A DNA stretch of 63,791 nucleotides, counting the filler, from Asterionella formosa (taxonomy: Eukaryota), in NCBI GenBank assembly GCA_002256025.1. It is 16 parts of 16 records of this genome, joined end to end, with 100 filler letters (N's around TTAATTAATTAA, not from the genome) between each part and the next. Parts side by side here need not be neighbours in the genome. Positions count along the whole stretch, not along the records: positions 1 to 31,834 come from NKIB01000576.1; 15 more parts are not named here. One strand, given 5' to 3'. A model generated the notes under the pieces. It did not search any database. It had not been told where the DNA came from and saw only the letters and a list, made by a program, of their open reading frames with translations. The translations under genes and the position numbers were made by a program. Every line of letters starts with the position of its first letter. Position 1 is the first letter of the stretch. This document shows positions 3,581-43,833 of the stretch, piece by piece.

Positions 3581-4625
3581 GACTCTCATGTCCTTAGTGC
3601 ACAAGTATAATTTTCAGTTAGCTAAAATGCTGTATATCAAAATTTTATTGTGAAAAAAGACAGATACTTGATAGTTATTGGTGATTGCAATCTTTCTAGT
3701 TGGTTGGATATGTAGAATTGCGAAATTGTTGGCAACCAGCAATGTTCCTGGTTCCAGTTGATGTGATTCAACCATGCTGATGCATTCACAGATTATCAAC
3801 AAATTCATGAGAAAACCATGCATCCTAAGGGCCCTAAGGGAACCAACAGGCAATTGTGATAAAATCTCTTACATCATAATTTGTTTTATGAGAAATTTTG
3901 TATTTTTTCAGCCCTAAGGAAATGAATTTCAGTACAAATTAACTTCATTTCGTCTATGTACTGTAGCTAAAATGATGTATAGTACGGATTTCAAATCTAT
4001 TACATTATCCTTATGGGATATTATTCATTTGCTTCCCCTGTCTGTCGGCCTCATGTTTGCCTTTCCTCGTCGCCTTGGTATTCGCTTACCGGTACATAAT
4101 ACTCCACTACCCGGTATTACCTGGTACTACCAGGCTACCTGGTACCTGGTACGTTGCTTGATTACCAGGTTTTTGTAGACATCGGTACCAGGGGTACCAG
4201 CATAAATACTGAGACGATGCCAGTTTTTTTTTGAATCTCATACATATACCGTTACATATGTGCGAGTCTATGTAGACTCTACGAAATGGTTTGTTGCATT
4301 GGTACCAGTAGTATAACTTTATTACACGTCTACATCAGTATCCATTTACCGGTATACTCTGAGTTCATTTCACGCAAAAGAAATGTGAATGATAAGAAGA
4401 ACAACTGCTTGACAATAATTACAGCACGATAAAGAGGAGCTGTGGAGACCTATTTGTTCTTTCGCCCCCATACAAAATACGGTAACTTAGCTTAGCTTGA
4501 ATACATCCCTGTTTCCATCTCTTGCTAGGTTGTCGCTTGTGCTTGATACCTCATCTGCCACTGTCAATAAGAAATACGTAGAATAGTATACTTAAAACTC
4601 TTTCAAGTCATCTCATTCGTTAGAC

Positions 4626-6320
4626 ATGGATGACGAGTTGGAGAAACGATTCGCTTTGCTGTTTGATGTGAACAATGGTCATGTCGACGAAGCCGGCATG
4701 GAAGCCTTGATATGCGAATATCCTCAGCTTGCTCAGAATCAATACAAGCTCGCATTTGAAGGGGATGTGCCATTACTATACGTCATGTGCTTGTTACGAG
4801 CGTCTGCTGGATTGATCAAGTTGGTCTTGGATGCCAATCCATTCAGCATTCGTCAGCTCGATCGGAATGGTTGCAGTCCCTTGCACATCGCCTGTCAAAG
4901 AGGAGCGCTCCTAGAGGTAATCAGGATCCTTGTTGAACGATTTCCGGATGCGCTGATGATAAGAAATACATACGACGCCATTCCCTTGTTCTTGGCTTGT
5001 CGACAAGCAAATTATCAAGATGTTATTGAGTACCTTGTTACGAAAAATGAGTGCACTGCTTCAGATCGAACCAAAAGGAACGAGACCCCGTTGCACTCAG
5101 CTTGCTCTGCAATTCGTGTGCACTCCGAAACTGTCAGATATTTGATCAGGTATGATCCAACTGCTTTGCAAGCTGCAGATGCTCGTGGACGATTGCCGCT
5201 TCACATGTTACTCCTGGAGAAGGTATCTGTCCCTCTAGATTTAATTGAATGGATCATTGATTTGTATCCCGATGCTCTTTCGAGAGTCAGTGACTTTGGC
5301 ATGACCCCATTACACTTAGCGTGTCAAAATCGCTCGTCATTCGAGGTGGTTCGCCATCTCTACGATCGATATCCCGAGGCCTTGTCGGCTCCCTTTGCGC
5401 CTACTCCTCTCCATATTGCCATGATGAAAAACTGTTCTCCCAATGTGATTGAGTTTCTAACCGCAAACTACAAGTTGAGAGAGTTCAATTGTGTTGGATC
5501 ACAGTATTTTCCACTTCGAGCATCATACCCTGAAACAGATATGGCTTTTCGTCAAGGTCTCAAGAGGAACAAATACATTCGAGCAGTAACTTTGGTTGAT
5601 TCAAAACTCGGAGATGCTGTTATGGCAAATTTACTGGGTATTGTGAACGAAAATTTGAATATCAGAAGCCTTTCTCTGGATGGGATCACAGTGGAAGTTG
5701 AGCCGAAACAGACCGGTGCCGCTATCGACCAAGCATTGAAAGATCTCATTTCAAAGAACAAAACGCTTACGAGTCTTTCCCTGAGGAACAATAGTATACC
5801 GATTGGTTGGATGGATTCTTTGGCATCGAGTACTTGCTTCTTGGAGACTATTGATATTACTGGGTGCAATTTTGGTCCCACCCTGGTTCCGATCTTACAG
5901 TCCATTCTTCGCGAAAATTCAACAATTCATACCTTATTGATCGGTGGCAATAACATAGGGAAAAATGCCACCATGGGTATATTCGATATGTTACGATACA
6001 ATCGTTCTATTCGAACCTTAGAATTTTGGCGTGATCCGATCGACGATGACGTATTAGAGTCAGCAGTTCACGCCTTGCAAGAATGCAATTCTACATTAAA
6101 AAAGGTCGGACTCGGCCATTGGTACCAATCGAGGCAATGCAGCCCTCGCCTGAAGTCTCTGCTGGAGTACTACTGCTCCTTGAATCAAGCGGGTCGCTCG
6201 GTTGCGCGCAACCCACAAACTACTAAACTCGAGTTTGTAAGTTTACTATCGTGCTCTGCTCACTCAGCGGTGGTCCTCAACGGATTACTACGTGATCTTC
6301 CCCATTTATGGTCACAATAA
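4626..6320 (+). CDS. Ankyrin-repeat plus RNI-like leucine-rich-repeat protein
   Basis: 564-aa ORF. Repeated (G)xTPLHxAC ankyrin motifs in the N-terminal half; LxxLxLxxNxI-type repeats (LTSLSLRNNSI, IHTLLIGGNNIG) in the C-terminal half. Confidence 0.85.
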   Translation: MDDELEKRFALLFDVNNGHVDEAGMEALICEYPQLAQNQYKLAFEGDVPLLYVMCLLRASAGLIKLVLDANPFSIRQLDRNGCSPLHIACQRGALLEVIRILVERFPDALMIRNTYDAIPLFLACRQANYQDVIEYLVTKNECTASDRTKRNETPLHSACSAIRVHSETVRYLIRYDPTALQAADARGRLPLHMLLLEKVSVPLDLIEWIIDLYPDALSRVSDFGMTPLHLACQNRSSFEVVRHLYDRYPEALSAPFAPTPLHIAMMKNCSPNVIEFLTANYKLREFNCVGSQYFPLRASYPETDMAFRQGLKRNKYIRAVTLVDSKLGDAVMANLLGIVNENLNIRSLSLDGITVEVEPKQTGAAIDQALKDLISKNKTLTSLSLRNNSIPIGWMDSLASSTCFLETIDITGCNFGPTLVPILQSILRENSTIHTLLIGGNNIGKNATMGIFDMLRYNRSIRTLEFWRDPIDDDVLESAVHALQECNSTLKKVGLGHWYQSRQCSPRLKSLLEYYCSLNQAGRSVARNPQTTKLEFVSLLSCSAHSAVVLNGLLRDLPHLWSQ

Positions 6321-8793: not shown

Positions 8794-11425
8794 CGTGAAA
8801 CTGGGAATTGATAGTTGTGTCAAGAAGCTTATTCTCAAATTTGTAAGCAAGTTGGAGCCGCGTTTATTTATTATCACAATGCCTTATGCACTCAGGACTT
8901 GTGAGGAGGAGTACATAGGATTGTACAGGGCGTACCTATATTCTTGGTTGAAGGATATTTTTATGTATGTACCGACGAAGAACAAACTATTGGCTAACAC
9001 TTGCTCCCATCTGGTAAATTTTACGATGCGCCCGGACATGATAGGATGTAAAATTGGTACTCGGAGTACCAGGTACTTAGTAGGTATTACGGTCCGTATG
9101 TAGCGCAGAAGTGCTACCGGTAGTCGTATAACAATTGTGAAAATCAAATGCCGGTATGCCACCAAGGTACTCCAGGAGTACCTGGAAGCCGCACGGTAAT
9201 AGAGAAATAAAACGTGTTTTTCCGAACCTTTCTATGGTACCTGGCACCGGTACCAGGTACCAAAATTACCAAATTACCGGTACCTGGTACCTTGTACCAG
9301 TAGTCCACAATATCCCTGCACTGCCATGATGTGCGTGCTACTTGTATTGTGATATATGAATACCGGTGGGAATTCATCCAGGTAACAAGTCTGCCACCGT
9401 CTAAAAAGGGATGATTGGATTCTTGGCTAATCATATCAATTTCTACGTAATATCGACAAAAGGGCAATTCAAAATGGATATTTATTGATCCGCCATCTGA
9501 AAGTTGAAAAGAAAGGTATACAAATGGAATAAATTATGTCGCGTGGGTAGAAATGAATCGCCAAGGAAAACAATAAATGATTTCGCTTTCTGGGAATGTC
9601 TTGTTACATAATGCATAAGTGCTTGAATCCCGAAGGGAAACAATAAATGATTCTCTTTCACCTCCTGTAGCTGGCGTAATGCTGTTTACTTAAACTTATT
9701 TTTAAAAATCAGCGGTACATTCTGTGTTTCGTTGGGACATTCTTGTGTTCCCATGCAGTCTTCCTCTTCTTGTTGTCTCATACTTATTCAGCATGAATTT
9801 GCTCCTTTCTCTACATGGAAATATTCTTACATATGTAGGCCATCAAGCACAAACATATTTAACTGTACCCTTGTACCAGGTACCAGGTACCTGGTACCAG
9901 GAACAGGAAACAGGAGAGGACTACCGGTATAATCAGCACCCAGTACTTTTAATCTAGAACGAAGGATAGGTGCATTTTCACTATCGCCAGAAAAGCCCAA
10001 TTTAGGTGTAGACTTCAGGAAATTGCACCTGAAATTTGCTGACATTTCCTTACATTTCCTGAAAGACATAGTCATTTCCTGAAAGTCATAGTCATATGCT
10101 GTGTGTTCTCTCGTTTTTGCCATACTAAGAAGAACTACGCTATTTATTTCGCGGAATCGTGCTTTAAATAGAAGACGTTCTTTATATAACATTAAATGAT
10201 TACCTGTCCAGCTTCATGTCGTCCGTTTCAGGAATATGACAACGACTTGCAGGAAGGCCCGGTAGCGCACTTATTCAGTTTTGACTCACTCCCAGTAACA
10301 CCTCCCATGCCTACCAGACGAGATAGGCTGGCTTTCCATTCCACACTCTCTTAAGTAACTGTCTATAATGTTACCTTATCATTCATTAAATCCAAATTGT
10401 GTTCTGATCATTGAAATCGTGTTCACCTACTACAATTAGCAACAGGAAGATGATTTGCTTAGAAGGTCCACCAATCAGTAACTTCTAGTCGTTGTCAGCA
10501 ATTTCTAGTCACATGTAGTTGCCAACTAGATCAGTGATCGTAAACTAAAGAGTCATTTTGAAAATGTGAATGAACTATTAATCAAATTATTTAAATAGAG
10601 AATCAAACAAAATTTGGATCGCCGCCCTACAGATCACTTAGTATAGAGTGTTGCATACTGTCAAAGTGTCAAATCTGTTTGCATCGCCATCGTTCTGTAT
10701 TGTACATCAACAAATTTCATGAAAAATGCGCCATAGGCGACGACTTCTCTTTTCGTTGTCGATATTAGCGTTATGATAATTATTCTTCTACTATCGTAAT
10801 GCCTATGTCATGCTTAATACATGTATCTATCCTATCTAATGGCAAACATGGAAGGAAAGAAACGATAGCTTGGACAAGGAGAAAAATCATAACCATCGTG
10901 CATTCGGAATATAATGCCAAGATAATTCAGGTGTATGCCCAAAAAGGGGAGACATGCACTTGGTATCACTATTTATTTGCGACAGCACTACCACAAATGC
11001 TGACTGCGAGGCTGTCCAATAAGAAAAGATTCTTAGAGTTGGCAGCGTACTGCATTCTAGATCAATCTAAAGAGTTTGCAAAAACTGAACAAAGATCACT
11101 ACATGAGTACTTCGCCCCTACTACTCCAGCAGAAAGCCTACAGAACATCACAGAACCAAGACGAACGCCCCAAGGCACTACAACACAACCAAAAATTTCT
11201 TCAGGGACATTACGCGCACATCGTTCCAAAAACAACATGCACTACTATCTACCAGCGTCAAAACAAATTATTTTACATACTTCCATATGAAGGGAGCGAA
11301 TGAGCACCATTATCCACCACTCCATCGCCTTAAATGGTCCATGGAGCGCAATGAAGACGCACCTAGCTAGAAATAGACCAGTAATAATGCGCTATTAAAT
11401 AATTAATATATATTTACTACAGTAA

Positions 11426-11497
11426 ACGGAAATGGCTCAGTTGGTTGAGCACGTTGCCTTTGATTTGAAATTGTGTGGTTCGATTCCCGCATTTTTT
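11426..11497 (+). pseudogene. tRNA-derived sequence (tRNA pseudogene or SINE head)
   Basis: A box TGGCTCAGTTGG at 11433-11444 with D-stem GCTC/GAGC, B box GGTTCGATTCC at 11477-11487, then T6. The anticodon and acceptor stems do not pair properly. Confidence 0.7.
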
Positions 11498-15376: not shown

Positions 15377-16023
15377 GTTAGTTTGATCATGAACCCTTCT
15401 TGTCATTTAGCTCAGCCATGAGTGCCCATGTGTAAGACATTTGGTGGGTTTATGATTTATAATTGCTATCTGTCAGGTAAAATCCTGACTTAGGGACCAA
15501 GTAAATTACTTATGTGCTACTCCTTCCTAGGGCATAGGTCTTCGTTTCACTTAAGTAACCCTTTAACCATTAGGGAATCAATCTATGAGACCCTAAGTCA
15601 TCAGACATTGTAGTAAGCGGTCTGAAGAGGTAATGCTCATCACTAGTCTAAGTATTAGTCCTAGATGTCTATATACTGAATCATGACACTGGACTAGTGC
15701 ATATTGTTGCACTATCCTTACATGTCAGGTCCATCAAGTTGTTCGGTATCTACTTTGGTAGGGCTTGTGGATTAAGTTATTGCTATATATATATTGAACC
15801 CTGTGGACGAACTGTACCATAGGTCATTATGTGGCACTTTTACAATGCTTCCATTCAATGGACTTCTCACTATTGCCTAGCAGGCTCCAACTTCATTGTA
15901 CCTGCCAGTAAACTGCTCAAATGTTCAGCTTGTGACATTCCAACAAAGCTAGTACTAGAAGCCGGAACACATTATTGAACACTGTAAGGTCGCAAATAGA
16001 GATCACTAGTATGTAAACAAAAC

Positions 16024-19000
16024 TCAACCCTCAGCTGATGTCACGTGCCTCTGGACATGAGTCTGGTTTCTTCTTGAATGTTGCTTTATCACAGTGGTCC
16101 TGTCAGTGTTCCACTTGCCCTCTTCTTTTCTCATTGATTCCACAGATCTGGCTGCACCATATGTGTCTTCGCCTCCTGATGCATTGGGATTTGAGTTGTT
16201 GCCTTCCTTGTCTACCAACTTCCCCCAACGATTACGCTTTCCTTCCTTTACTCGGAGTTCGACTGGGCCATGAGCAAAAACACATTTACTTTTTTTTTTC
16301 ATTGGGCAAAAGGTACCATGACTGACATCCCAATGGTTGCAAAGACGAGATCGGAACTTAGGATCCTCAGAGCACCGTTTGATATTCACATCACGTTTAC
16401 GCAAACACGAATCAGTCCTGAAAATCCATTCATCATCCGATCTCATCCAACCACGACAATTCAATGTTTTAGCAGCAGCACTGCCTTCCCATAACACTAT
16501 CCCAATATTTTCTATTGAGGGAATATTGGAAGTCCTCCCTAGTTGTATTGAAGCTACAAGGGTATCACAAAGAACGTGCTCCCTAAGTAAATCACCCTTT
16601 TCGTCGCAGCCAATCATTCCGTTCATGTCATTGTCTGATAAGTCATCATCCCTTGGTTCCCCTGGCTCTTCAACCATGCTAGACTTCGATTCAATCATAT
16701 CCGATATCGAATTCATGGTCACCTCATCTTGTGTCACATTGTTCGTACCAGTAACACAGGACAATGTAGGTTTGACTTCATCTTGGCTTGATGTTTGGAT
16801 TTCACCCTGTTTGGTGATTCGCCGTCGACAGAGTGGAATCGAATAATTGACAACAAATGGGTCCTCTTCGGCCATGAATTCTTGGCAAACAGAGTAGCAA
16901 TGCATAACCAGTCGAGGGAACTTGCTATCGAAATAGGACATCAATCCATCCAGATTAGACCCCACACGTTTCTTTACATCCAACGGTAGTTCATCATAGT
17001 GATGGTGTTTGTTTCTGATGAGTCTCAAACAATCGCGTACTGATGATTGATCGTACGTTCTAAACCTAGACACGTTGTTGATGAGATCAGAGTCTAATTT
17101 CTTGTCCCATGAAGTAGAGACAACCGCAGCAGCATTACGCTCAATTGCCAGAATCTTGCCACCGACGACAGCTGAAAGTATCACTCCTTCCTCTTGTGAG
17201 AGCTGATCATCACATTCGATCCTATCAGATAGGTCGCAAAGGAAGGACATCCGACGTTGAAGCGACCAGAAGAATGGATGTTCGCAGATTTGTTTTGCTG
17301 ATGGACGGAACGATGGGTCTCGATGAATCATTGAGGATACGAGGTCAAAGGCTTCAGGGGAAATGTCCTTCAATTGCGCCGTTAACGGGCGATTTCGCAT
17401 GATGTTTGCTTCACGTTCATACCATTCACCAAAAGGATGTACTCCAGGAATTAGGGTGCAATGAAAGATGCAACCCAACGAAAAAATATCGATTGAACGA
17501 CTGGTCCTCAAATGCATAGCTAGCCCTAGGGGCGAAGAATCAATCATGGATTCCTGTTTTGCTTTTGAGCTGTTATCTGAAGTCACAGATCCAGCATCAG
17601 TTCGACCTCGTAATGACATAACTTCCGGAGCTTGCCACCCGACACTTCCTGGGCCTGCTCCGACCATACGTGAGCTTTCTCCAACACAGTTTGATGGACC
17701 AGACAACGACGCACCTCCTAGTGCGCTCATTCCGAATGAACTTTGCCCAGTTAATTGCTTGCCAAGACCCATATCAGATATCTTGGCCACAAGCAGTCCC
17801 TCGTTAAAAGCATCAAACAAAAATTCACTCTCATTAGTCCTCTTGCCATTCTTCTTGCTCGTACGGCTTTTTGCTAGCAGAATGTTGGCTGGCTTGAGAT
17901 CACGGTGAACAATACGAAGAGAATGCAAGTGTCTGACTCCTTGGGTAATCTGAAAAAGCGTATTTTTTGTGACGTCCGAAACACCTCTGTCCAACGACGA
18001 CCTATTTTGGAGGGTCCCAATCAAATCATGCAATGACATATCACAAAGCTCCAGTGCGAGATAGACAAAGTCTCCTCGCACTTCTTTGAGAAAATATCGA
18101 ACAACGTTTGGATGGCCATCACTCTCTATTAAAAGTGAAATCTCACGGTCCGCGCTCGCATGGTACGCCTTCAGCATTCTCTTCACCGCGACTCTGCGCC
18201 CATCAAGCATTCCCTTGTAAACAACAGTTCCATGTCCACCAAATCCTAAAACTTCGTCCGTCACCGCAATGACTCCAACTTTACGCATGCCATTTTCTTC
18301 TTCTAGTGGCTGGATGGCCGACACGATTAAGGTCGCATCGTCATCCTTGGCTCGCAAACGCTGTCGTCGGCCCATTTCAAAGGAAAGCACAAATATGAGT
18401 GCCATGGTAGGTGGCAGCCACGACGCCAGAATACGAAAAAAGCTTCGCTTTTTCTTTCGGTATTGGTGCTTCATCTGTTGCAACACTTCTTCGTGATCGA
18501 GCCCCAGTTTTTGTTGTAGTACGAGCGCTCCATAGTCTTGTACATTTTCCAAAAAAGATCCACCGGAGAACTCTCCATCATGGTGAACGCCAACAAGACA
18601 GGCAGGAAATCCTGTAGAAAATGGAGCGCATTTGCGGTTCGTGTTGCTCAACGACAAGGGATATTTTTGTTTGTGCTTCAAAGTTGGATCTTGAAGGTGA
18701 CGTCCAATATTCGGGACTCTTGGTTTCACAGAGCCGATTGCAAATACAGATGAACTCGATGACTGAGATTGTGGAAGGCCGATACCAGCAGATGATGAGA
18801 GTGACTTTGAGAATTTGCCTAACGGCATGGCAAACAATTGACCAGTTTTCAGTGCTCCAACTATCATTTGGTCTTTAGTTTCAGTTCCGTGCAAGGCCTC
18901 CATTTGACGTTCTAGTTCCTTCGATAAATACTCCATTGAATGACTAGATACTGCTGCGCCTGGAACAATGTTAACTCTTAGTGATCTTCCAGTTGACGAC

Positions 19001-20058
19001 TCCAGAGCAAATGCAACCGGCGAATCAAAGGTTACGTCAGAGATCCACTCAGTATGACCAGAGACTGGGTTTCGATATGCGACATTTCCATTGGGAGTTG
19101 CCAAAAGAAACGAATCATTTGTTGACGCATTATCTCGATTGGGAAGCATTAATCTTGGTGCATGTTGTTGTAGGCCCTTTAAGCTCGCTGTAAGTTCTGA
19201 ATTGTCGTCCTTGTCGCTCATCAGCATATCATCAACCGACATGATTTCCGAAGAGGAAAATTGCACATCCATGGCTCCCGTTTGAGCGTCATACAATGAT
19301 GCTGAATAATCCACTCGTCCAACCCAAACGACATTCCGATCGCCCATATTTGTGTCATCGCCACGGTCCTTGGAACCTACTGAAACTACTTTCAAAACTT
19401 CCCCCGAGTCCCGATCTATCGCAGCAGCTGTCGCATGTCTCGATCCAACATAAAATCTCCCACGACTATCAACAAATGGTGCTCTATGCACCAACTCACG
19501 CACAGTCGTCGTGGCCGTCTGTTCCGTCTTGGCGGTGACAGTGAGAAACACTCGTCCATCGACTGAGGGGACCGCCACGGTTTTTCCGTCTTGTCCCGAA
19601 GAAGTTGTCGTTGTAGTTGTCGATAGCAAGGGTGCTGAAATATCCTTGTCGTCTTGCTGTTTCCAAAGTACTTTGCCTGTTCGTCTGGACAAACCAGCAA
19701 GAGTTCCATCGACGGTGGCGACAATAATTACGCCATCGTCCTCGTTGTCGCCTTTCCATGTCGAATCAAAGTCTTCCAAGACAAAATCAGAGTCCACTTG
19801 ATCTCTAAGCACTGATACGGACGAAGCAACGACATTCGGTTCACCGACGCATTTCGAAATTTGTTTGTGAGCCACAGCTAAACTGAGTAACACCCAGGTC
19901 TGAATCCAGAGCGCTCGATTCAGGTGTCGTTTCTTGATGCTGCTTGCGCTACTCATGTTCTGTGCCTGCACTACAGGGATCGTAGTCATATCGTTCTGCG
20001 ATGGATCTATCGGATCCACCGATAAAGGTTCCGATATAGAACGCCTCCGTTCCTTCAT
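16024..20058 (-). CDS. IRE1: IRE1-like ER-stress sensor: luminal domain, TM, Ser/Thr kinase, KEN RNase, plus a C-terminal CCCH zinc finger
   Basis: VATVDGTL luminal motif, one TM segment, LGFGGHGTVVYKG, VAVKRML, ESDGHPNVVRY, HRDLKPANILL, ISDMGL, GWQAPE, and KEN motifs HPFFW and RNKHHHY. The start is uncertain: ATG 20058, or ATG 19956 just before the signal-like hydrophobic stretch. Confidence 0.95.
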   Translation of the reverse strand: MKERRRSISEPLSVDPIDPSQNDMTTIPVVQAQNMSSASSIKKRHLNRALWIQTWVLLSLAVAHKQISKCVGEPNVVASSVSVLRDQVDSDFVLEDFDSTWKGDNEDDGVIIVATVDGTLAGLSRRTGKVLWKQQDDKDISAPLLSTTTTTTSSGQDGKTVAVPSVDGRVFLTVTAKTEQTATTTVRELVHRAPFVDSRGRFYVGSRHATAAAIDRDSGEVLKVVSVGSKDRGDDTNMGDRNVVWVGRVDYSASLYDAQTGAMDVQFSSSEIMSVDDMLMSDKDDNSELTASLKGLQQHAPRLMLPNRDNASTNDSFLLATPNGNVAYRNPVSGHTEWISDVTFDSPVAFALESSTGRSLRVNIVPGAAVSSHSMEYLSKELERQMEALHGTETKDQMIVGALKTGQLFAMPLGKFSKSLSSSAGIGLPQSQSSSSSVFAIGSVKPRVPNIGRHLQDPTLKHKQKYPLSLSNTNRKCAPFSTGFPACLVGVHHDGEFSGGSFLENVQDYGALVLQQKLGLDHEEVLQQMKHQYRKKKRSFFRILASWLPPTMALIFVLSFEMGRRQRLRAKDDDATLIVSAIQPLEEENGMRKVGVIAVTDEVLGFGGHGTVVYKGMLDGRRVAVKRMLKAYHASADREISLLIESDGHPNVVRYFLKEVRGDFVYLALELCDMSLHDLIGTLQNRSSLDRGVSDVTKNTLFQITQGVRHLHSLRIVHRDLKPANILLAKSRTSKKNGKRTNESEFLFDAFNEGLLVAKISDMGLGKQLTGQSSFGMSALGGASLSGPSNCVGESSRMVGAGPGSVGWQAPEVMSLRGRTDAGSVTSDNSSKAKQESMIDSSPLGLAMHLRTSRSIDIFSLGCIFHCTLIPGVHPFGEWYEREANIMRNRPLTAQLKDISPEAFDLVSSMIHRDPSFRPSAKQICEHPFFWSLQRRMSFLCDLSDRIECDDQLSQEEGVILSAVVGGKILAIERNAAAVVSTSWDKKLDSDLINNVSRFRTYDQSSVRDCLRLIRNKHHHYDELPLDVKKRVGSNLDGLMSYFDSKFPRLVMHCYSVCQEFMAEEDPFVVNYSIPLCRRRITKQGEIQTSSQDEVKPTLSCVTGTNNVTQDEVTMNSISDMIESKSSMVEEPGEPRDDDLSDNDMNGMIGCDEKGDLLREHVLCDTLVASIQLGRTSNIPSIENIGIVLWEGSAAAKTLNCRGWMRSDDEWIFRTDSCLRKRDVNIKRCSEDPKFRSRLCNHWDVSHGTFCPMKKKSKCVFAHGPVELRVKEGKRNRWGKLVDKEGNNSNPNASGGEDTYGAARSVESMRKEEGKWNTDRTTVIKQHSRRNQTHVQRHVTSAEG

Positions 20059-20612
20059 CGCGACTGATGACACGAATGATTATGGAACAACACTGCAGAC
20101 AACGACACCAGCAACGAGGGACTGTGTTCTATGGTCCCTGATGTTCCTACATACATTTTGTACTATGGGTAAATTCCGGTATATATATATGATGATAGGC
20201 TATCATACATATACATTTATATGTTGATTTATCATGTTTATGAGGCACTCTTAGACATACGATGGAGATATCTAATAAATAGGGCATGAGTGTGCGAGCG
20301 ACGGATGCATGGTGTGAGCGAGGATGATGACGTGCTCGTGAGTACCACCTAGCCTCGTTGCTATCATTCACTCCATTTACCTAGAGTACATATCATGTGG
20401 TACGGAGCAAATTATTGTCTCCTGGTAGGTATATTCGTGCAATTCCTTGAACAACAGGACGTGGCAAACAATGAATTAAGTGTATAGTTGCTAAAATATT
20501 TATGGCTGTGGCGCGGCACTCCAATCGAGATTGAGCGTCTAGATGAATAGAAGGGTATATTGGTTGAGTTTTTTTCAAGTACCCTTGGGTGAAAATGAGT
20601 CATTTTTGCTTT

Positions 20613-23550: not shown

Positions 23551-24646
23551 CTATGATCTAACATAGCAAACAAGAAGCAAGCAGCAAAATCAACAAACAT
23601 GAACGATGACAACAGATCAATGTTACATACCTTTTTTGGGGGGGGGGGATAAGAGGAGGGCAATATATATATACTACATCAAATAATTTGCATTCCATAT
23701 CCTTCTATATTGATCTTCAGGTTGCAACCAGCCAGGCATAGGTTTCCAGATTCTTCATACCGGGTGACCTGGTAGCACCCCAGCCAGTACTGGTACACTG
23801 TTGCCACCTTGAAGGTGAGAGATAACGCTAAAGCAAACAAGGACATATGTGCAGACGAGCACACTCCTAAGTAAAAGCTGACAATTAGCCCTGCATCACA
23901 TCGAAGTCCTACAGGGAAGCAGTTGTGATGGTTGGTGAAGGACTAGCCAAATGGCAGGAGAGGGCTTTACAAATATGGATTCGACTCGGTTTAGTTATCT
24001 CATTGTTTTGTGGATTCAATTCGAATTGGCCATGTGAAGGCTTCAATGTTGTTCAGGCCAAATCTTTTACAATGCCCCCACCCACTTGGTCAGAACACTG
24101 CGAACCACTATATTGGAGTCCTCTACCGGTACTTGGAACACAAATACCGGTAGTCACAGTGACACGTCGTAACTAAGCTACGGGTACACTAATTACAAAA
24201 ATTCTACGAGTATATTATTCGACATGGTAAGACTCGTACTAAACGTGATACGATACTACCGGTATCATGCATGTCTGACCACATTGACGCAGTTAAATGA
24301 TGACTGAGGCGGGACCAGGGAATCTTGAATCACACGAAGTAGGTACTACCGGTAAGCAAATCGGATTCCGGATGATATGGTCTGGCCGTTGTTTCCAACT
24401 CGCGGCCACTGATTTTTACATCGGAATGCATTCTCTACATAATGCTCAGACCTCATGGATTTTTCTAAAGCAAGGAGGAAAATGAAAATAATAAGCATCA
24501 TGTTGTATACATAGAATGAAAGCATCGATGTGTGCATCTATTTAGTTATTATTTCTCATCGTCCTCTTCTGAGACGTTTGCTTATCCATCATTTGCATCG
24601 TCAATTTAAAAACAATAAATAATAATAAAAAACATAACTGATAGAG

Positions 24647-27544
24647 ATGGTGGAAATCAAAATGGGAGAAAATGTGGAGAATGAAGTGCAAGCGCCTCCA
24701 GAAATAGACGAGCCCAAAGCAGCGTCATTATCGAAGAGCTGGTCGATTAAATCCGCGCATGTCCCCACATTTTCAGGAGGCAAGATCGCACATTGTCAAA
24801 CAACGAAAGGCTACAGCAACACCAATACGCCATTCTTACTCCTTCCAGTTGACGGAGACCTGGCGATTGTGGACGCAAAGAGAGGTGTCAAGATTCGAAC
24901 GATTCGGCGCGGGGCAAGCAATACAGTCAATGATGACGAGGACGAAGACGGCATGGATGCCGACGCCATTGTTAGCTTTGCACTTTCTCAAAATGATGCA
25001 ACTCTTGTCACTACTTCTAGAAATCACTTGATGCGTCAATACGATTTGACACAAGATTGGGACCTAGACCAGCCTGCTCCAGTGACGAAACTCTGGGGCC
25101 GATCGGGGCATTCCCTTCCTGTCACACACATGGTATTTCATGCATCGCACGTCTTTTTAGCGACGGGGTCCGTTGACGGGACAGTTCGAGTTTGGGATGT
25201 TCGTGGAGCGTATGTTACACACGTGTTTCGTCCAATGAAAGGTGGAGATGGACAGGGAATGAATACCGTCACATCGATTGCTTGGAAGAATGACTTGTCT
25301 CAATTGGTCCTAGCTGTTGGAAGAGACGATGGGAGTATTGTTGTGCATGATTTGCGAGAAGAGCACGATATTGCTATACTAAGAGATCATGTGTCAGCTG
25401 TAACTTGCATGCAATGGGATAATCATGGATACTTCATCAGCAGCGGCCGTGACGCCGTTTTAAACACATGGAAAGTGGTGAAACATTCTAGTTCCAAGAA
25501 GAAGAACAACAGTGGCCCAAAACAAACTTATGAACGAATTTTCACCCTACCGATATATGAGCAAGTGGAGGGAATGGTGTCATTACCATCTATTGATACT
25601 GAGCTATTGGTAGCAACGGCAGGCAGTAAGGGGAACGTCAGACTCTGGAAGGCCATATACAATGAAAGTGGCATATCGGAATTTTCAATGGAGACAAAGG
25701 AGTCTGACTCAGACTCCTTTGGCGAAGCCAAGGGTGGTTACCTCCAAATGACATACACTCCACGAGGAGCTGAAGGAACATTTTATGGGCAAGGGCAACT
25801 TGTGGTGGCTGATGCCGAACATAATTTGCTCTTCATTAGTCATGCTGGCAAGAAACTAGCGGTTCAACGAACCATTGTTGGACACAATGATGAAATTCTA
25901 GACCTCAAGATCATCCCTAAAACGAATATTGTCGCCGTCGCCACAAATAGTGCACAAGTCAGAATGTTTGATCTTGAAACCTTTTCTTGTACAATTCTCG
26001 ATGGACACACTGCCACTGTCTTGTGTGTCGACGTGAGTCCTTGTGGACGATTTCTCGCAACATGTGGAAAGGACAAGACGATGAGGCTGTGGAACGTGAA
26101 GGATCAAAAATGTGTAGCTGTTGCAACGGGTCATACGGAAGCTATTGGTGCAACGGCCTTGTCAAAGAAGGTCGGACGCTATGATGTGAGTGGCAAAGCG
26201 GCCAAGAATGGAGGTGGGTCATTTGTTGTCACGGCAAGTAAGGATCGAACCTTGAAACGTTGGAATTTGCCGGGATTGGCAGAGTTGCAGGGCCAAGAGA
26301 TGGAATTCGAGCTTCGCGCATTTTGTAGTGCTCGTGCGCATGAGAAGGACATTAATATTGTGAGTGTTGCTCCCAATGACTCCTTGGTTGCCACGGGCTC
26401 CCAAGACAAGACAGTCAAGCTGTGGCAGTCCAGCGATCTATCACTCAAGGGCACACTGAAGGGACACAAGCGTGGCGTATGGGATTGTCAATTTTCTCCC
26501 TACGATCGGGTGATTGCTACATCAAGTGGAGACAAAACGGTAAAGTTATGGTCGCTGTCCGACTATTCATGCGTTCGTACATTTCAAGGTCACGTATCTA
26601 GTGCGTTGCGAGTGCGATTCCTCAGCGGAGGACTACAGTTGGTATCGTCTGGTGCTGATGGATTGGTCAAGTTATGGACAATTCGCACGAATGAGTGCGA
26701 GGCTACCATGGATGGCCACATGAACAAGGTGTGGGCGCTGGATCTCGACGGTACCACGTTGGTCAGTGGTGGAGCAGATTCTCAAATTGTTGTCTGGGAA
26801 GACACGACTCAAGAAGAAGAAGACAAAAAGCGAGCCTCCGAAGAACAATCCATTCTCCTTGAACAGCGCTTGGCCAACCATCTTCGTTACAAGGAGTATG
26901 ATCAAGCCCTGGGACTGGCACTGGAACTTAATAAACCCCGCCAGGTGCTCAAGGTGATCACATCGATTGTCGAACAAGATGTTAGCCATGCCTTGACAAG
27001 TCTCCAAGGTCACGTCAAGGACTGGGATATGGATCGGACCAAACAAATCTTGCAGTATTGCCGCGATTGGAATACACGGGCGCGAAATTCCAACATAGCA
27101 ATGTTGGTTGTTCAAGCTGTTGTCACAACCATACCAGCTGCTGACTTGGCTTCAGCAGATGGTATACCTGAAATTCTAGCCGGTGTGGTCCCCTATGCCG
27201 AGCGTCATTTCGATCGCCTTGACAAACTTTTTGAAAGTACTTACCTGATAGACTTCACCCTATCGAGTATGGGCGCATTAGATCTGTACGAAGAGTATGA
27301 GATTTGGGAGACAAAGAGCAAGCTGGTGTTGCCACCAAATCAAATGGATGGACGAATTCAAGTGGGCGGAACACCACTTGTTGGTTCAATCAAACGAGCA
27401 GTGACCGGTGACGATGACAGCGATGAAGTCGTGACAATTGGAGATTCCGAATCGTCAGATGATGAGCACGATGAGGACAAATTAACGAATGCACTATCTG
27501 CAGAAAGTACGGACAGCGATGATGATTCTTCTACAAGTTCTTAG
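24647..27544 (+). CDS. UTP13: U3 snoRNP-associated WD40 protein UTP13/TBL3
   Basis: Many GH...WD repeats, AHEKDIN and GHKRGVW, C-terminal Utp13 motifs WNTRARNS and PYAERHFDRL, and an acidic tail. Confidence 0.92.
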   Translation: MVEIKMGENVENEVQAPPEIDEPKAASLSKSWSIKSAHVPTFSGGKIAHCQTTKGYSNTNTPFLLLPVDGDLAIVDAKRGVKIRTIRRGASNTVNDDEDEDGMDADAIVSFALSQNDATLVTTSRNHLMRQYDLTQDWDLDQPAPVTKLWGRSGHSLPVTHMVFHASHVFLATGSVDGTVRVWDVRGAYVTHVFRPMKGGDGQGMNTVTSIAWKNDLSQLVLAVGRDDGSIVVHDLREEHDIAILRDHVSAVTCMQWDNHGYFISSGRDAVLNTWKVVKHSSSKKKNNSGPKQTYERIFTLPIYEQVEGMVSLPSIDTELLVATAGSKGNVRLWKAIYNESGISEFSMETKESDSDSFGEAKGGYLQMTYTPRGAEGTFYGQGQLVVADAEHNLLFISHAGKKLAVQRTIVGHNDEILDLKIIPKTNIVAVATNSAQVRMFDLETFSCTILDGHTATVLCVDVSPCGRFLATCGKDKTMRLWNVKDQKCVAVATGHTEAIGATALSKKVGRYDVSGKAAKNGGGSFVVTASKDRTLKRWNLPGLAELQGQEMEFELRAFCSARAHEKDINIVSVAPNDSLVATGSQDKTVKLWQSSDLSLKGTLKGHKRGVWDCQFSPYDRVIATSSGDKTVKLWSLSDYSCVRTFQGHVSSALRVRFLSGGLQLVSSGADGLVKLWTIRTNECEATMDGHMNKVWALDLDGTTLVSGGADSQIVVWEDTTQEEEDKKRASEEQSILLEQRLANHLRYKEYDQALGLALELNKPRQVLKVITSIVEQDVSHALTSLQGHVKDWDMDRTKQILQYCRDWNTRARNSNIAMLVVQAVVTTIPAADLASADGIPEILAGVVPYAERHFDRLDKLFESTYLIDFTLSSMGALDLYEEYEIWETKSKLVLPPNQMDGRIQVGGTPLVGSIKRAVTGDDDSDEVVTIGDSESSDDEHDEDKLTNALSAESTDSDDDSSTSS

Positions 27545-27729: not shown

Positions 27730-28575
27730 CTAAACAGTCTTTGCCAAATCCGCTTGAATCAAGGCCATGCGCACGTCATCACCCATGCTTTTGCTGGAAG
27801 GCACGAAGGTCGTCTTGCAGTGAGGAGCGTGACCGACATCGCGAATCATATCGAAATATTGCGTCAATAGCAGCAAATCCATGACTTCCTTGGTAGAGGT
27901 TCCATGCACTTTGTCACTGAACTCCACAATACTCGACTTCAATCCTTCCACAATGGCCTTCCGCTGCTTGGCAACACCGACGCCACTCAAGTACTTGGCT
28001 TCCGCTTCAGCTTCCGCCGACTTGACCTGCAGAATCTTGTCTCCTTCCGCCCGCTCCGCAATGGCGAACTTGAGCCGCTTGCTGGAGTTGATTTCATTCA
28101 TGGCCGCCTTGACGCGCTGATCAGGATCCAAATCAGTAATGAGGGTCTGCAGGATTTGGTATCCATAGCTCGTCATGGTTTCGCTGAGGGCGGCCTTGAT
28201 GGCCAGCGCCAGTTCTTCCTTACATTCAAAGACAGCGTCCAGTTCCAAAGTGGGAAGTTCCGATCTCATCACGTCGTACACGTGGGCCGTAATCTGCTGT
28301 GTGGGGTTCGTGAGCGCATAGAAGGCGTCATAGACTTTCTCGCGAAGAATTTGGTACTGAACCGAGACAACCGCAACCAGAAAGACGTTGTCGAGCGTTT
28401 TGGTTTCGACGCGGACGTCAAGCTGCTGCACTCGAAAGGAGAGGCGACCGACGAGCTGCTCGATGGGACAAACGACGAAGTTGAGGCCGGGCTGCACGAG
28501 CCGACTAAACTTTCCGAAGCGTTCAACAACGCCGACTTCGGAGGTGCTGATGGTGAAGATGCACGGGATGCACAT
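27730..28575 (-). CDS. SPFH/band-7 protein, hypersensitive-induced-response (HIR)-like
   Basis: VERFGKF, ETKTLDNVF, VKAAMNEIN, AEAEAEAKYLSGVGVAKQRKAI, LLTQYFD. Confidence 0.92.
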   Translation of the reverse strand: MCIPCIFTISTSEVGVVERFGKFSRLVQPGLNFVVCPIEQLVGRLSFRVQQLDVRVETKTLDNVFLVAVVSVQYQILREKVYDAFYALTNPTQQITAHVYDVMRSELPTLELDAVFECKEELALAIKAALSETMTSYGYQILQTLITDLDPDQRVKAAMNEINSSKRLKFAIAERAEGDKILQVKSAEAEAEAKYLSGVGVAKQRKAIVEGLKSSIVEFSDKVHGTSTKEVMDLLLLTQYFDMIRDVGHAPHCKTTFVPSSKSMGDDVRMALIQADLAKTV

Positions 28576-30390
28576 GATTGTGATGGCTTGGTTGAGTCGA
28601 GTTGGTGAGAACGATAATGCAAAGTCTTATCGATCTACCGTTTGGATCGAACAAGTGCAGGAGCAATGTGTCGGGATTTGAGGTTATGATGGATAAGAAG
28701 GACACAGCATCAGGAAGAAGCAAGATTCACACATTCTATACTGCTGGTATAAATATATATGTAGGATGTATGAAGTTCTCATGCCTCCCTTGCTTCGGTA
28801 AGATATGCATGTGCTGCATGCTATCTTACAATATGCATGTACATGGTCAGCAAAATGTTAACCTTAACCCCAGTCCGGTTGTTGTCCTTCTGCCGTGGGA
28901 CTAAAATCGTTGATGCCTTGTGTTCGCTCATGTTTCTTGCATTCTGAGGATACTACCTGGTACGGAGTACCAAGTCCCGGTACCCTGGGTGCATGTACTG
29001 AACGTACGCATACTCACCACTACAGTTGAAAAAATCACTCAGTGAGTACGGAGTACAATTAGCGCATATACCGTAATATTCTGTTGACAATCTTAATAGT
29101 TTCACTTGTGTGTTTTCTAAAAGAGTGAGCTTAAACTAAATGTAATTTTGAAACTAAGTTTTGATTGAAAGATGGCAACTCCTACATGTTTCTGAAATGA
29201 ATTTTTCCTTGTTCCTTGGAGGCGAGGTTCTTCATAGCTCCTACAGCGGCTGTAGCAAAGTAAAGTATATCCTCTTCCTTGTAACATATTTATCCATCTA
29301 GCCTAGATAGATTCTAGGACATAGATGTTCCTTCACTGAAATAATTCTTTCAGGTAGCTCCACTATGATGATTGGATTGTTCCTCAATCCTTTGGACAAA
29401 ACTGATTTGTCTCTCCAATCATTTGGAGTTTAGGGTTTACCAAACTTGTTTGGTAAACATAAGGAGAAACTTGATAGAATTCGCTCTTCAACATGATTCT
29501 TTATCAAATGTCTGAAGGTTATTAATATTGGTACTTAATTGTGCATTGTTGTTTTTCCATCAAATAAAATAACTAGTAGGGAAATGTTGTCTTCACACAA
29601 ACCAAATCGAATAGGGCAACTTTTTTGCTTTTTCCCGGCCTCCTTCATCTAAAACCGATCAATAATGCATGTGATAAAACAAAAACCTGTTAAACTGTCC
29701 ATCAGTGGGTGAAATATCACTTATCTTACTTTTAAGATCACCAGCGCTGAAAAATTATTTTCACTAACACTTTGTAATATTGTGAGCTATCTGGTAATAG
29801 CATATCTGGTCTTGTTCTTACATGATTATTCCAGTGTTCCCAAAGAAGACATCTCATATGATTAATTCAGTCATCCCAAATAACAAGACATCTCACACTT
29901 ACCTGATCACATTCTCCTGTTATTTTATTTGTTATTTAATAAATAAGCATCCAATCATGCAAAAATGTATAACAATCTCAAATACATTGTAAGTCCTGGT
30001 TTCAAATCACTCAAAATATCGATCCTCGACTTGTATGATTCCATATGGTTTATCAAATTCATACTCCTCTGTCTACCAGCTACATATGGCACATGGTACT
30101 TACCAAAACACCCCCTCCTTTTGCTATTTTGGATTTTGGATGTGCTTTCTAACTGTTAGTTGATGAACAGATTGGCTTTAGCAATGCACTTGAAAACACT
30201 GGCAGTAGAGCATTTTACATCTACATTATCACAGTGGTTATAGAAAATCTAATAGTATCCCTATTTTGTAATATTCAGGTATGGTATAGCACGCGATCTC
30301 TAACACAATGGCCTCCCCCCCCAAGAGTTCTGAATCAATGGAATGCTGTTACAAGAAAACAATTATCAATGACATGCAATGCATGGATGT

Positions 30391-34156: not shown

Positions 34157-35564
34157 GTTCTCCCCTATTGTTTATTCAATGTTTTCCTTTCTGCGGGGAT
34201 TCAATACCTGGCTACCGCTCACGAGATCAACTTGGCCATTTCAGATAAAGGCCATTCATTTATGAACCTCATGGTTGCCTTTCTCATTGTTGCCCGTGTG
34301 ACGATTAGTATCGGACGGTACAATGAAGCACGGGGGTACTTGGGAGACATGTACCGTGAAACTCGAGCCCTGATGCAAAATGTGGTCGTCCTTAGTGATC
34401 AATTAGACAATGACCAAGTCAAGGAGTGGAGGAATCTAGTCGCGTACCGGTCCAATGTGCTGTTACGTACCGCCATGGCTGTCATTGATTATTCGGATCC
34501 ACCTCATGTGGCGTGTTGGGAATTGAAGGAGTTGAGTGAGGAAGAAAAGGTGGAAATTCAAAAGTATATCTTTTGTGATACTGGCAACAATCAAGGTGGG
34601 ATGAGTCGATGGAAACATGGACATGAATCCACCACCTTGTATGAAGAGAATATGCGTGTCCCCATTCGAATGGCATTTAAATTGAGGCAGGCATTGAGAT
34701 TGCATAAACAAATTTTTGTGGGTGACAATCAAATTGAAGTTCCACAAGAGCTGCGATTAATGGCCAATGTTGATGCCTTTTTGAGTGGATATTTTGGGTA
34801 AGTGTATTGAAAATTGAGTTTCGCTTAAATAGGGGGGAAATAAACATTATATACGCCATCTCATTCAACGTCGTTTTGTATGCTCTTTCTACCCCCCTTT
34901 CCCAATGCACAATGATGACAACTACAGCATTCGAAAATTCTTGACAACACCATTTCCCTTTCCCCTTGTTCAAATGGCAAGAACCTTCCTTTTCTTTTGT
35001 GAGTAAGCCCATACACCGGATGGATATAGCTACCTTGCTGCACCACTCATCAACCCCATTTTGTTATTTCTAAATGTCAACATTTTCGTCCAGATGTCTT
35101 CACTGTCCCATTTGCCTTACTATCAGACACTAGTAGTGTCTATGCTCATTGTGTAACAATATTCATTTTGACCTATGGATTTATGGGGTTGGAATATGTA
35201 TCCATTGAGTTGGATAATCCATTTGGTATTGATGACAATGACTTTGACAATCTTGGAATGGCCTATGTAAGTTACATTAACAGGTGTTGAGTGTGTCTGT
35301 GGGTTTATTTCGAAGATTTTCACCTTTGGTGATACCAAGCACTACTGTGCCTAGTGTGCAAAAGAGTTGAAGATTGACAACTAATATGTGATGTTTGCCA
35401 TTCAAATTTAGACAACATTTGAAGATACTTACTTGACCATTCTCAATATTGATGGCCCCAAATGGAGAGATGAACTTCGATTGAAGATGAATGAAAATAT
35501 CAGTTTGGACAAGCAAACATTTTCTGATGAACAAAGTTTGTTACTCCCTTCATCATCAGTGTAA
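34157..35564 (+). CDS. Bestrophin-like anion channel, 5' end missing; exons 34157-34797, 34928-34998, 35094-35266, 35412-35564
   Basis: AFLIVARV..GRYNEARG, TTPFPFPLVQMARTFLF and GLEYVSIELDNPFGIDDNDFD. The GT-AG introns splice in frame. Confidence 0.85.
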
Positions 35565-40635: not shown

Positions 40636-42497
40636 CACCCTCACCAGCAGATTCAGGCAGAAGAACAGGAGCGGGGGTGGAGATGATATCAGCATCGGAA
40701 GCCAAGCATGCATAATAGTTAGGAGGACTGGGGAGGGATGGAGGGCAATGGAGATAGTGCGGGCGCATCAACATATGATGGGAAGCGGGATGATGTTTAG
40801 TGAAATAATCAGCACGATTCAAACTACCTTTTTTCCAGTATACAAGAAATTGGCCTTGGCGAACCCAATCGTGTACCCAGTAAAAACGCATATCCATAGC
40901 TTTGGAACGTTTTCGTCGGACGGTATCATTGGCAATGCCACTGGCAGTGCTATTATCGGTGACAATACGGGTAGAAGGTTGGGGATGACCAAGCTCAACA
41001 AGAATGTGCGAATAGCATATGCCTCTTTGCCATTGTGGAACAAAGCAGCTAATTTGGCCTCAGCAGCACTTGATAAAACATCCTTAAGAATTTGACAGTG
41101 TACGTAAATAGCACCGTTAGCCTAAGAGGAGGGATGGACGTAGTGAGGCTAGGCGGAGACAAGGGTTTACAGCTGAGAAAGTGAATGCCGGCAGCACGGG
41201 AGCGACCACGTGTTTCAGAGAGATAGGAAGCATTGCTTTCAACATGGAGGACCATGTAACTGGCAGTAAAGCGAAGTGTGGCCTCAGGATGAGTGGCACA
41301 ATGATTGAGAAGGTGAGTAATAGCAGTCAAGGTAGCCACAGTGGGGGTTGCTTGTTGTGTAGCCAATGTACCAAGGGCTGGCAACATAGTACAGTCAATA
41401 GCACGGGCATAATACAATAAAGTACCAAGAATCTCTTGCACACGTGTTTTATCATGGAGGTCAAGGACAGGTGTGACATCAGAAACAACAAATTGCTGGC
41501 AAGCGCCATAACTAGGTGCAGTCCAGGCATGGGGGGCATGTTGTGGGTGTGTTGGGGTGGTGTGCGTGAATCGTTGTAGAGCACGAACAATGTAACCAGG
41601 CATAGTGAGGTCAACTGTGCAATGTTCGTAGTCCCACGTCAGTGTAAGGCCAATGTAACGAGAGCCAGTCCAATCACTTGTGAGTCGGTATTTGGTACGT
41701 AAAGTGGTGAGGAGACGGTCCACGTCACTACGTTTGGTGTAACGTACACCAAAATCATCAACAACAAGCGTAAACATGAGATCACTGGTGGTATCCATCC
41801 ATAGGCCAGGGGTGACTGGGCAGGGGAGGTAATGATGCGGGAGCAAGAACTGAGCAAGTTGATCATTGGCAAGTTTACCAGCCTGAGGCAGCCCATACAT
41901 GCCACGACGGATTTCGGCATAGATGTGCCCATCAATGATTTTGGGAGCTAGGTTGTAGAGGGTTTGAATGTGTGGGGGGATCATCCATATAGGGATGCGC
42001 ACGTATTCATAGTCGGCAGGTGCAAGATGACTTTCCAGATAAAAATCAGATAAATCCAGAGTCATGAAGCGGCCATTGGGGGTACTGATGGTGCTGTTGA
42101 ACAAACATTTTGCAGTAGTGAGATCAGCAGTCTTGGTGCTGACATTTCCAGTGTAAATGACGCGATCCCCCCCAGCGGTCCAACGAACTCGTTGGGGAAT
42201 GGTTTTTTCAGGGCGATCGGCACACACAATGCGGATGTAAGTGGCGCGTTTGTGTGAGGGCATTTCATGCTTATGAATGAAAAAACAGCAATTAGTACCC
42301 GTGGGCATGTCAGAATGGGGTCCCAAGCCCTGAAATAACCGGCCAATTTATAAGCCATTGGCCTTGGCCAACAGGGGAGCAGTGCTGCAAGTCAATAATT
42401 CTCGATATCCAGCAATTTTGCCATTGTCAGGGTTGATAGCGGTGCCATGGAAACAAAAATTAGTGGCCAGGGGAGTAGCACTGGTTTGAGGAGGGGC
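40636..42497 (-). mobile_element. Ty1/Copia reverse transcriptase-RNase H, frameshifted
   Basis: RVRWTAGGD, GMYGLPQAG, LVVDDFGV, LLYYARAID, MDMRFYW, ADYFTKHH. Confidence 0.93.
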
Positions 42498-42823
42498 NNN
42501 NNNNNNNNNNNNNNNNNNNNNNNNNNNNNNNNNNNNNNNNNTTAATTAATTAANNNNNNNNNNNNNNNNNNNNNNNNNNNNNNNNNNNNNNNNNNNNAGT
42601 ACGGAGTTTCCCGTACCTCCCTGGTACCTGATGGTATACCGTATTCTCCAAACAAACATATACTGGATTAATACAAAGCACCGTCGAAAAAACTCAAGAG
42701 GTCATCATGGTGGAAGGAAATGCTTTGCTTCGCTCTCCGTATTTTGTGGTATTTTCGTCAGACGGAGGTCATGGTGCCCTCGAAGCTTGACTGAAGCTTC
42801 GACCTTTCCTGAATCAACAGCAA

Positions 42824-43833
42824 ATGATTGCCTCCGAGCGCAAGCTCTGGGTACCGAAAGCAGCACACCACACTTTTGACCAATATCTTCTGTCGACAGC
42901 TGATAAGGAGAATGAAATCAAGGCATTGTTTGCCAAGTTCTCGGAAAAAGCTCCGCAGAAATCTTTATGGTGCCTATGTTGTAACTCCCTGGTGGTTGGC
43001 CAAGAATTCGTACTCTCTTGTTTGCTTCTAGCTGGCCATCGAGTTGGAATGCTCGTAGAAAACGAGCACGAACAGTGGAGACAAGTTGCCTCCATTTTGG
43101 CAGTCTCTGTCTCTCTCATTATCATTCTTCGATGTAGCGAGACCAGCAATCCGTCACAGAAAATTATGAAGATGAGGGGCACAGATGCTATCCTTCTTGC
43201 TGGAATCCTACGACTGCTATCTGCGGTTCTCAAAACGTTAACAGCATCGTATTCATCTGATACAGTCCATGCGTTGGCTGCTGTTGGTATGGTTGTACAT
43301 TTACTATTTTGTGACTACACATATGCCAATGGGATATCTGTTTCAAATCACACAACTCAAGGAATCGACTGCGGTCGAAAGCCCTTTATGGGAGGGACCT
43401 TCTCCCTCAACGCAGCTCTATTTTCGACAACTTTGCTGGCGTCGAGACTGTCGTCGAATTCAATTGTCTATGTCTTTGTGTCGTCGTCTGTTTTGCTTTT
43501 TGCCTTTTATCCCGCTGCTCGTCATGCCATATCCAACCAAACTTACGCTCCATACAGTAAGTGTACATGTGCCAAGTGCTAGTTGCCTACCCTGCCGATT
43601 CTCACCTGAGATCAGTTTCTTTTTCTATTTCGACTGTTCTGTCTCTTACACTGTGGGTGCTCCTTCGTGACATGCGTGAGAAGATCTTCGTCACAGGCAT
43701 AACTTTGACAATCTGTGTGCTTGCTCCAGTATGGAAGCACCATATACAGTCTAAAAAGGTCATCATAAGTGGACCTTGGGATATAGTTCAAATCATTTCT
43801 GTTGACAACAACCCAACTCAAACCGACCAGTAA
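42824..43833 (+). CDS. PIGC: GPI-GlcNAc transferase subunit PIG-C/GPI2; intron 43557-43615
   Basis: LSAVLKTLTASYSSDTVHALA, SLNAALFSTTLLASRL and C-terminal K..ISGPWD after an in-frame splice; multiple TM segments. Confidence 0.85.

Follow-up and report, generated by a model that had tools for sequence, protein, structure and literature searches.

The IRE1 of the diatom Asterionella formosa continues beyond its RNase into a conserved module with a CCCH-type finger

The window, a 63,791-nucleotide stretch of Asterionella formosa DNA, is a single contig from 1 to 31834 and, from 31835 to 63791, a patchwork of pieces with paired 44-base N runs every ~2.1 kb. On the minus strand a single open frame runs from 16024 to 20079 and encodes an IRE1; its translation contains the tail peptide that the earlier note had quoted at 16249-16356. 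Searches of the A. formosa genome (G000) with the KEN domain and with the tail gave one match each. This is the organism's only IRE1, and it is intact. Its parts are set out in Table 1, together with the other genes of the window and two bZIP genes from elsewhere in the genome.

Table 1. Features of the IRE1 gene, of the rest of the window and of the candidate substrate genes (residues numbered from the first Met)
Feature	Location	Strand	Basis
IRE1 coding sequence, intronless, 1344 aa from first Met plus stop	16024..20058	minus	open frame, Pfam, RNA contigs
ER-luminal sensor region, residues ~107-345, PQQ-like beta-propeller matches	19024..19740	minus	Pfam PQQ_2 E 1.9e-08 (residues 107-261); conserved blocks in consensus of 132-row alignment
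Single transmembrane segment, residues ~540-561	18376..18441	minus	hydropathy maximum (19-residue window) of 1.69, starting at 540; basic residues after
Ser/Thr kinase, residues 601-~932	17263..18258	minus	Pfam Pkinase E 6.7e-35; HRD and DMG motifs intact
KEN RNase, residues 936-1068	16855..17253	minus	Pfam Ribonuc_2-5A E 4.4e-35
Variable acidic linker, residues 1069-1186	16501..16854	minus	mean identity to query 0.10-0.12, 113 tails
Trp block, residues 1187-1231 (W1190, W1204, W1211)	16366..16500	minus	conservation; model pLDDT 86-87 over first part
CCCH finger with lead-in and tail, residues 1232-1270	16249..16365	minus	invariant residues; tristetraprolin profile match; pLDDT 90-91
Post-finger block, residues 1271-1317 (W1278, SGGED motif, terminal helix)	16108..16248	minus	conservation; predicted helix pLDDT 86-90
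Basic C-terminus, unconserved, residues 1318-1344	16027..16107	minus	mean identity 0.09
Ankyrin repeats	4596-6320		Pfam
Utp13 WD40 protein	24638-27544		Pfam
SPFH/Band 7	27730-28626		Pfam
Bestrophin piece	34157-34801		Pfam
Weak RVT_2 fragment	41049-42347		Pfam
GPI2	42791-43582		Pfam
DDE transposase	45021-46298		Pfam
bZIP paralogue	L011:959-1890 (G000:C2618)	minus	predicted HAC1/XBP1-type unconventional intron
bZIP paralogue	L009:1192-2446 (G000:C5032)		predicted HAC1/XBP1-type unconventional intron

The order of parts is that of an IRE1: a luminal PQQ-like region, one transmembrane segment, a kinase and KEN. The catalytic motifs of kinase and KEN are intact, and Y1002, R1015, N1016 and H1020, which we take to be catalytic by analogy with human and yeast IRE1, are invariant in an alignment of 132 rows comprising diatom and distant homologues. 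Towards the N-terminus, where an IRE1 would have its signal sequence, there is a moderately hydrophobic stretch at about residues 48-64 (hydropathy <1.5), in a provisional numbering that starts at the first Met. After KEN, 276 residues follow in the same frame, in agreement with the extension of ~270 aa reported in the earlier note, whose acidic linker (21 D/E in 118 aa) and Trp block are both present. The distance from the KEN catalytic motif to the finger ranges from 142 to 391 aa in the 126 of 132 aligned rows where it can be measured.

The extension is transcribed. A polyA RNA-seq contig, from a run possibly made on the source strain, covers 15801-20021 with no difference from the genome and no gap, and two metatranscriptome contigs from another study (15761-19882 and 15751-20148) are also ungapped. 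All three, which carry no strand or expression-level information, span the region from KEN to the stop without a gap and with no joints listed. Transcripts ending or splicing ahead of the finger would, by the earlier note, have refuted its reading; the contigs pass through the finger to the stop. RNA depth is zero from 20272 onward.

The finger to which the earlier note pointed is real and conserved, but it is only part of what is kept. Judged by its conservation across homologues, the unit is a basic module of ~130 aa (residues 1187-1317) made up of the Trp block, the CCCH finger and the SGGED helix; it has 27 K/R against 18 D/E, and four conserved Trp. Residues 1160-1325 used as a query matched 143 long proteins, 120 of them listed. 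Every listed match has kinase and KEN, and the named ones among them are diatoms, except for one labelled Alexandrium. The four finger ligands, whose loss in orthologues would have counted against the finger, are present in all 121 tail-selected proteins (query counted) and in 132/132 rows of the alignment. R1236, C1240, C1251, C1259, F1261, A1262, H1263, L1268, R1269 and W1278 are each found in 132/132 rows, W1204 in 130, W1211 in 129 and W1190 in 122, and the residues of the SGGED motif in 126-130. Across 113 tails (8 more, with the KEN anchor pattern unmatched, were left out), mean identity to the query is 0.53 at the KEN end, 0.12 in the linker, 0.63 in the Trp block, 0.82 in the finger, 0.79 in the post-finger block and 0.09 in the last 27 residues, the tail figures being inflated by selection of the homologues on the tail. 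On these alignments the module is better conserved than the KEN end among tail-selected diatom homologues.

A profile search of 1.84 billion representative proteins gave 397 matches at E <= 0.001. The best 150 of these included 108 new proteins: 73 with KEN upstream, 31 short pieces without KEN and 4 unrelated multi-finger proteins. No full-length carrier of the whole module other than IRE1 was seen among those best 150.

These results bear on whether the tail might be an artefact, either a mis-joined gene model or a neutral, functionless read-through. That the finger matches no curated family is the one point in favour of such a reading, against which stand the single open frame across IRE1, the three ungapped RNA contigs of two studies, the identical architecture of all 120 listed long homologues and the invariance of the ligands in 132/132 aligned homologues. 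Given the conserved tail, the RNA contigs from KEN to stop and the invariant ligands, we rejected it as scarcely credible.

The finger has the spacing C1240-x10-C1251-x7-C1259-x3-H1263, as the earlier note had read it, and its ligands are encoded at 16270-16341. With three Cys and a His, a C-x3-H end and invariance in 132/132 rows it belongs to the CCCH type. It does not reach the Pfam cut-off for CCCH fingers (zf-CCCH_UNK scores 14.9 bits where 31.1 are required, and PF00642 is not matched). Among 81 members, 29 match zf-CCCH_UNK at E <= 0.1, the best at 1.1e-4, and no Pfam family matches the module at its cut-off. Because the finger lies below every Pfam cut-off, databases list such proteins as plain IRE1. 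Among solved structures, the profile scores best against tristetraprolin (E 0.0029), a further C3H1 protein (0.018) and POS-1 (6nzl; 0.021). The description of the finger as TTP-like holds in part. Its lead-in, (K/R)(F/Y)R(T/S)RL, resembles the YKTEL of tristetraprolin, TIS11 and POS-1, and the C-x-F-A-H-G..ELR tail is common to all. Those proteins, however, have two fingers of x8/x5 spacing with a Tyr after the second Cys, whereas the diatom IRE1 has one of x10/x7, with Met at that place in 126/132 IRE1 tails. The two C-x8-C-x5-C-x3-H fingers and the aromatic between second and third Cys that mark the TTP/TIS11 tandem zinc finger are absent. A likeness to Regnase-1 (ZC3H12A), an endoribonuclease with one adjacent CCCH finger, is one of logic only, as that protein is soluble and its PIN nuclease is unrelated to kinase-KEN.

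AlphaFold2 with 136 diverse sequences gave a model of pLDDT 77 and pTM 0.54, in which the Trp block, the finger and the last helix reach a pLDDT of 86-91; with 81 close fragments pLDDT was 54. Fold searches returned weak CCCH matches only. From the conserved residues and profile matches we infer that the finger binds zinc and single-stranded RNA.

The module is carried by diatoms, Parmales, a brown-algal fragment and further distant relatives. Two proteins were named among 30 distant ones looked up; Triparma laevis (Parmales) has the kinase-KEN-module order, and the brown alga Hapterophycus canaliculatus is represented by a partial protein with the module only. A KEN-selected search, with the kinase C-lobe and KEN of a distant carrier as query, gave 161 matches, the best 120 of which were listed. 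The module is present in 17 of the best 18, the other stopping early in the Trp block, and in three diatoms further down. Among the remaining 99 listed IRE1s, of which the named ones are mostly fungal, 96 stop no more than 35 aa after KEN, and the named fungal IRE1s end ~13 aa or less after it, while that of the diatom runs on for 276 residues. The premise of a finger-bearing IRE1 in this lineage alone had overlooked green algae. In a quick 68-row tree built without the tail, 49 carriers and the truncated protein fall on one side of a branch (SH-aLRT 92); in a 26-row tree without the tail all 13 carriers do so, with support of 96. These results show a fusion that is transcribed and conserved, and that occurs on a single branch of the IRE1 tree. 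As its carriers lie on one side of these tail-free trees, it looks old and of single origin, and it probably arose within ochrophytes, the group from which the sampled stramenopiles came. Lineage-specific, the term used in the earlier note, is apt in that the module-bearing group is set apart from other IRE1s, but the range is wider than diatoms. One carrier, a Nitzschia IRE1 with kinase, KEN and module (P0111), is misannotated at its source as a P-type ATPase flippase.

A finger on IRE1 has a precedent. PMC11077094, citing Yamaoka et al. 2018, states that green-algal IRE1, unlike that of land plants, has at least one CCCH finger, and proposes that it might recruit mRNA to the ER. Both the combination and the recruitment role are already published for green algae, and with them the idea, raised in the earlier note, that a CCCH finger built into IRE1 selects its substrates (PMC11077094). 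Our surprise is limited for the same reason. The passages that our literature search returned (including PMC13545648, PMC4245714 and PMC4736632) describe neither an IRE1 finger nor a UPR in diatoms or stramenopiles; Yamaoka 2018, its 2019 sequel, the Marchantia paper or supplements may mention stramenopiles.

Chlamydomonas CrIRE1, its finger known here through the citing paper, can be set beside the module by way of P0347, a cluster of 36 members that we guess to be of the published green-algal type. In P0347, also an IRE1, a canonical C-x8-C-x5-C-x3-H finger (PF00642 E 4e-11) follows ~40 aa after KEN, and there is neither Trp block nor post-finger block; the diatom finger, in contrast, is x10/x7, lies inside a 130-aa module and is 142-391 aa from the KEN catalytic motif. 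In a profile comparison of P0347 with the module group only KEN aligns. Joining the two in the 26-row tree was rejected (p = 0.005), and joining them with P0349, the finger-less sister of P0347, was rejected narrowly (p = 0.048). The module is probably an acquisition separate from the P0347-type finger, with tree support that is partly borderline, and this suggests that two algal lineages reached the IRE1-plus-finger design separately.

The two fingers might instead be one ancestral IRE1 appendage, kept or transferred by endosymbiosis and lost elsewhere. They occupy the same position behind KEN, the wider grouping with P0347 and P0349 is rejected at p = 0.048 only, and ancient presence with repeated loss is compatible with every tree here. 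Such shared ancestry nevertheless seems rather unlikely to us: the P0347 finger is canonical, close to KEN and without the flanking blocks, the profiles align in KEN alone, and the module group keeps to one side of a branch at 96, with the addition of P0347 rejected at p = 0.005.

The genome also holds a candidate substrate. It gave 28 bZIP matches, 23 of which, being non-duplicate, were scanned. In two paralogues (C2618 and C5032), each present twice in the genome, the unspliced frame ends with an ISRPA motif, at the place of a hairpin with a CAG|C loop, and a second hairpin, CAG|CAG, follows 59 or 364 bases further on, giving predicted introns of 59 and 364 bases. An acidic frame of 78-79 residues becomes readable only when both loops are cut. 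The family has a third bZIP (L017, L018; G000:C3059, C5628), which has its stop right after the zipper and carries no splice-site motif.

Eighty related metagenome loci (L031-L110) extend this picture: 3 are without the 5' motif, 2 are joined and 75 are otherwise unspliced. The joined contigs, L051 and L089, are joined exactly at the predicted cut. The 3' hairpin is found in 70/75 unspliced loci, against 2.8% in shuffles, and four of the five loci without it have <400 bases of room. All 70, which form 37 clusters at 80% identity, have an in-frame stop inside the intron, and none fits a spliceosomal GT/GC-AG or AT-AC junction in any register. At the 3' site a 7-nt CNG|CNGN loop is closed by four base pairs that hardly vary (33-35/35 per pair); this stem shows no compensatory change and is for that reason unproven by covariation. 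Of 36 distinct 5' sites, only 8 have a loop of 7 nt. L052, L054 and L057 have the 5' motif and no matching 3' hairpin.

Across L031-L109 the intron is laid out as a 5' hairpin with a GATC:GATC closing stem, a CU(1-3)AA spacer, an internal hairpin, a second CU(1-3)AA spacer and the 3' hairpin. CU(1-3)AA, a pattern chosen after viewing the data, occurs 10-19 bases before the 3' cut in 28/37 clusters (shuffled mean 7.7) and 15-27 bases after the 5' cut in 21/37 (shuffled mean 8.2). The second spacer resembles the branch-point consensus. These spacers could be the module's putative site, or that of a branch-point-type protein. Between the bZIP and the stop of the unspliced frame, 0/70 loci have a hydrophobic segment (19-residue hydropathy >1.6; maximum 1.33). 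No 5-7-mer in 33 bZIP 3' UTRs exceeds the shuffle maximum, and hence no yeast-like 3' UTR element is evident. From its hairpins and frames, the bZIP mRNA is likely to be an unconventional-splicing substrate of IRE1.

How IRE1 finds its one splicing substrate differs among yeast, animals and plants and is only partly understood. The mRNAs of XBP1 and bZIP60 are brought to the ER by a hydrophobic segment in their unspliced product, that of HAC1 by an RNA element (PMC11077094), and in yeast the mRNA has to dock on Ire1, away from the RNase, before it can be cut (PMC4279078). The diatom unspliced bZIP is without a hydrophobic segment, so an RNA-based route would be needed, for which a docking site on IRE1 is a candidate. 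Yeast Ire1/HAC1 offers a close likeness, with its kinase-KEN sensor, a long intron with an in-frame stop, no hydrophobic targeting segment and a separate mRNA docking site, required in yeast (PMC4279078, PMC11077094) and proposed here for the diatom. In yeast, however, targeting is by an element in the 3' UTR, and docking is on a basic motif of the juxtamembrane linker, in place of which the diatom would have the tail module.

On balance we lean towards the module docking substrate mRNA. It sits on a flexible acidic tether behind the RNase and is built round one putative zinc-binding finger. When ER stress clusters IRE1, the modules would dock the unspliced bZIP mRNA, the diatom counterpart of HAC1/XBP1, and KEN could then cut both of its hairpin loops. 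Docking would stand in for the nascent-chain membrane targeting of XBP1/bZIP60, a route not open to the diatom bZIP, and the module would do what the basic linker motif does for HAC1 in yeast. A CCCH finger on its own binds weakly, and the Trp block, the helix and IRE1 oligomers would therefore supply avidity.

The module might also bind RNA to other ends, selecting RIDD targets or holding ER-bound mRNA generally, with bZIP splicing independent of it. Its nearest profile match is tristetraprolin, CCCH fingers of the decay factors TTP and Regnase select decay targets, and no enriched 5-7-mer was found in the 33 bZIP 3' UTRs. We think this unlikely, since the candidate substrate has no hydrophobic targeting segment and needs an RNA-based route, and since single-stranded CU(1-3)AA, albeit a post hoc pattern, recurs in its intron (28/37 clusters against 7.7 shuffled).

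Equally doubtful is a protein-binding or regulatory role, in which the module either recruits a partner, be it the RNA ligase, a decay factor or the ribosome/SRP, or restrains the kinase-RNase by folding back on it. About 90 conserved residues outside the finger match no family, SGGED and W1278 are invariant surface-type motifs that could form an interface, and one usual RNA-stacking aromatic is absent from the finger. Yet RNA-binding CCCH proteins share its lead-in, FAH and ELR residues, the module is net basic, and a long variable tether would suit a capture arm better than a fixed interface.

A more specific proposal, that ochrophytes independently fused a new ~130-aa RNA-binding domain (Trp block, atypical CCCH finger and helix) to IRE1 and that it recognises the single-stranded CU(1-3)AA spacers beside the intron's internal hairpin, we put forward tentatively, as improbable in all its parts together. 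If it held, substrates would have a third way to IRE1, besides the basic linker motif of yeast and the SRP route taken by XBP1/bZIP60, and IRE1 would have been fused to a finger a second time, by convergence. The diatom IRE1 supplies the sensor half of a UPR, a response for which our literature search found no description in diatoms. A discrete, deletable domain and a candidate substrate lacking a membrane-targeting signal make the docking directly testable in transformable diatoms.

Two smaller features lie in the same contig as IRE1. A stretch at 11420-11495, in which ARAGORN called no gene, is tRNA-like by eye, with D-arm and T-arm words. Downstream of IRE1, between 14000 and 15400, stop-interrupted frames with a CxxC..H..C motif and no Pfam match look by eye like a decayed retroelement.
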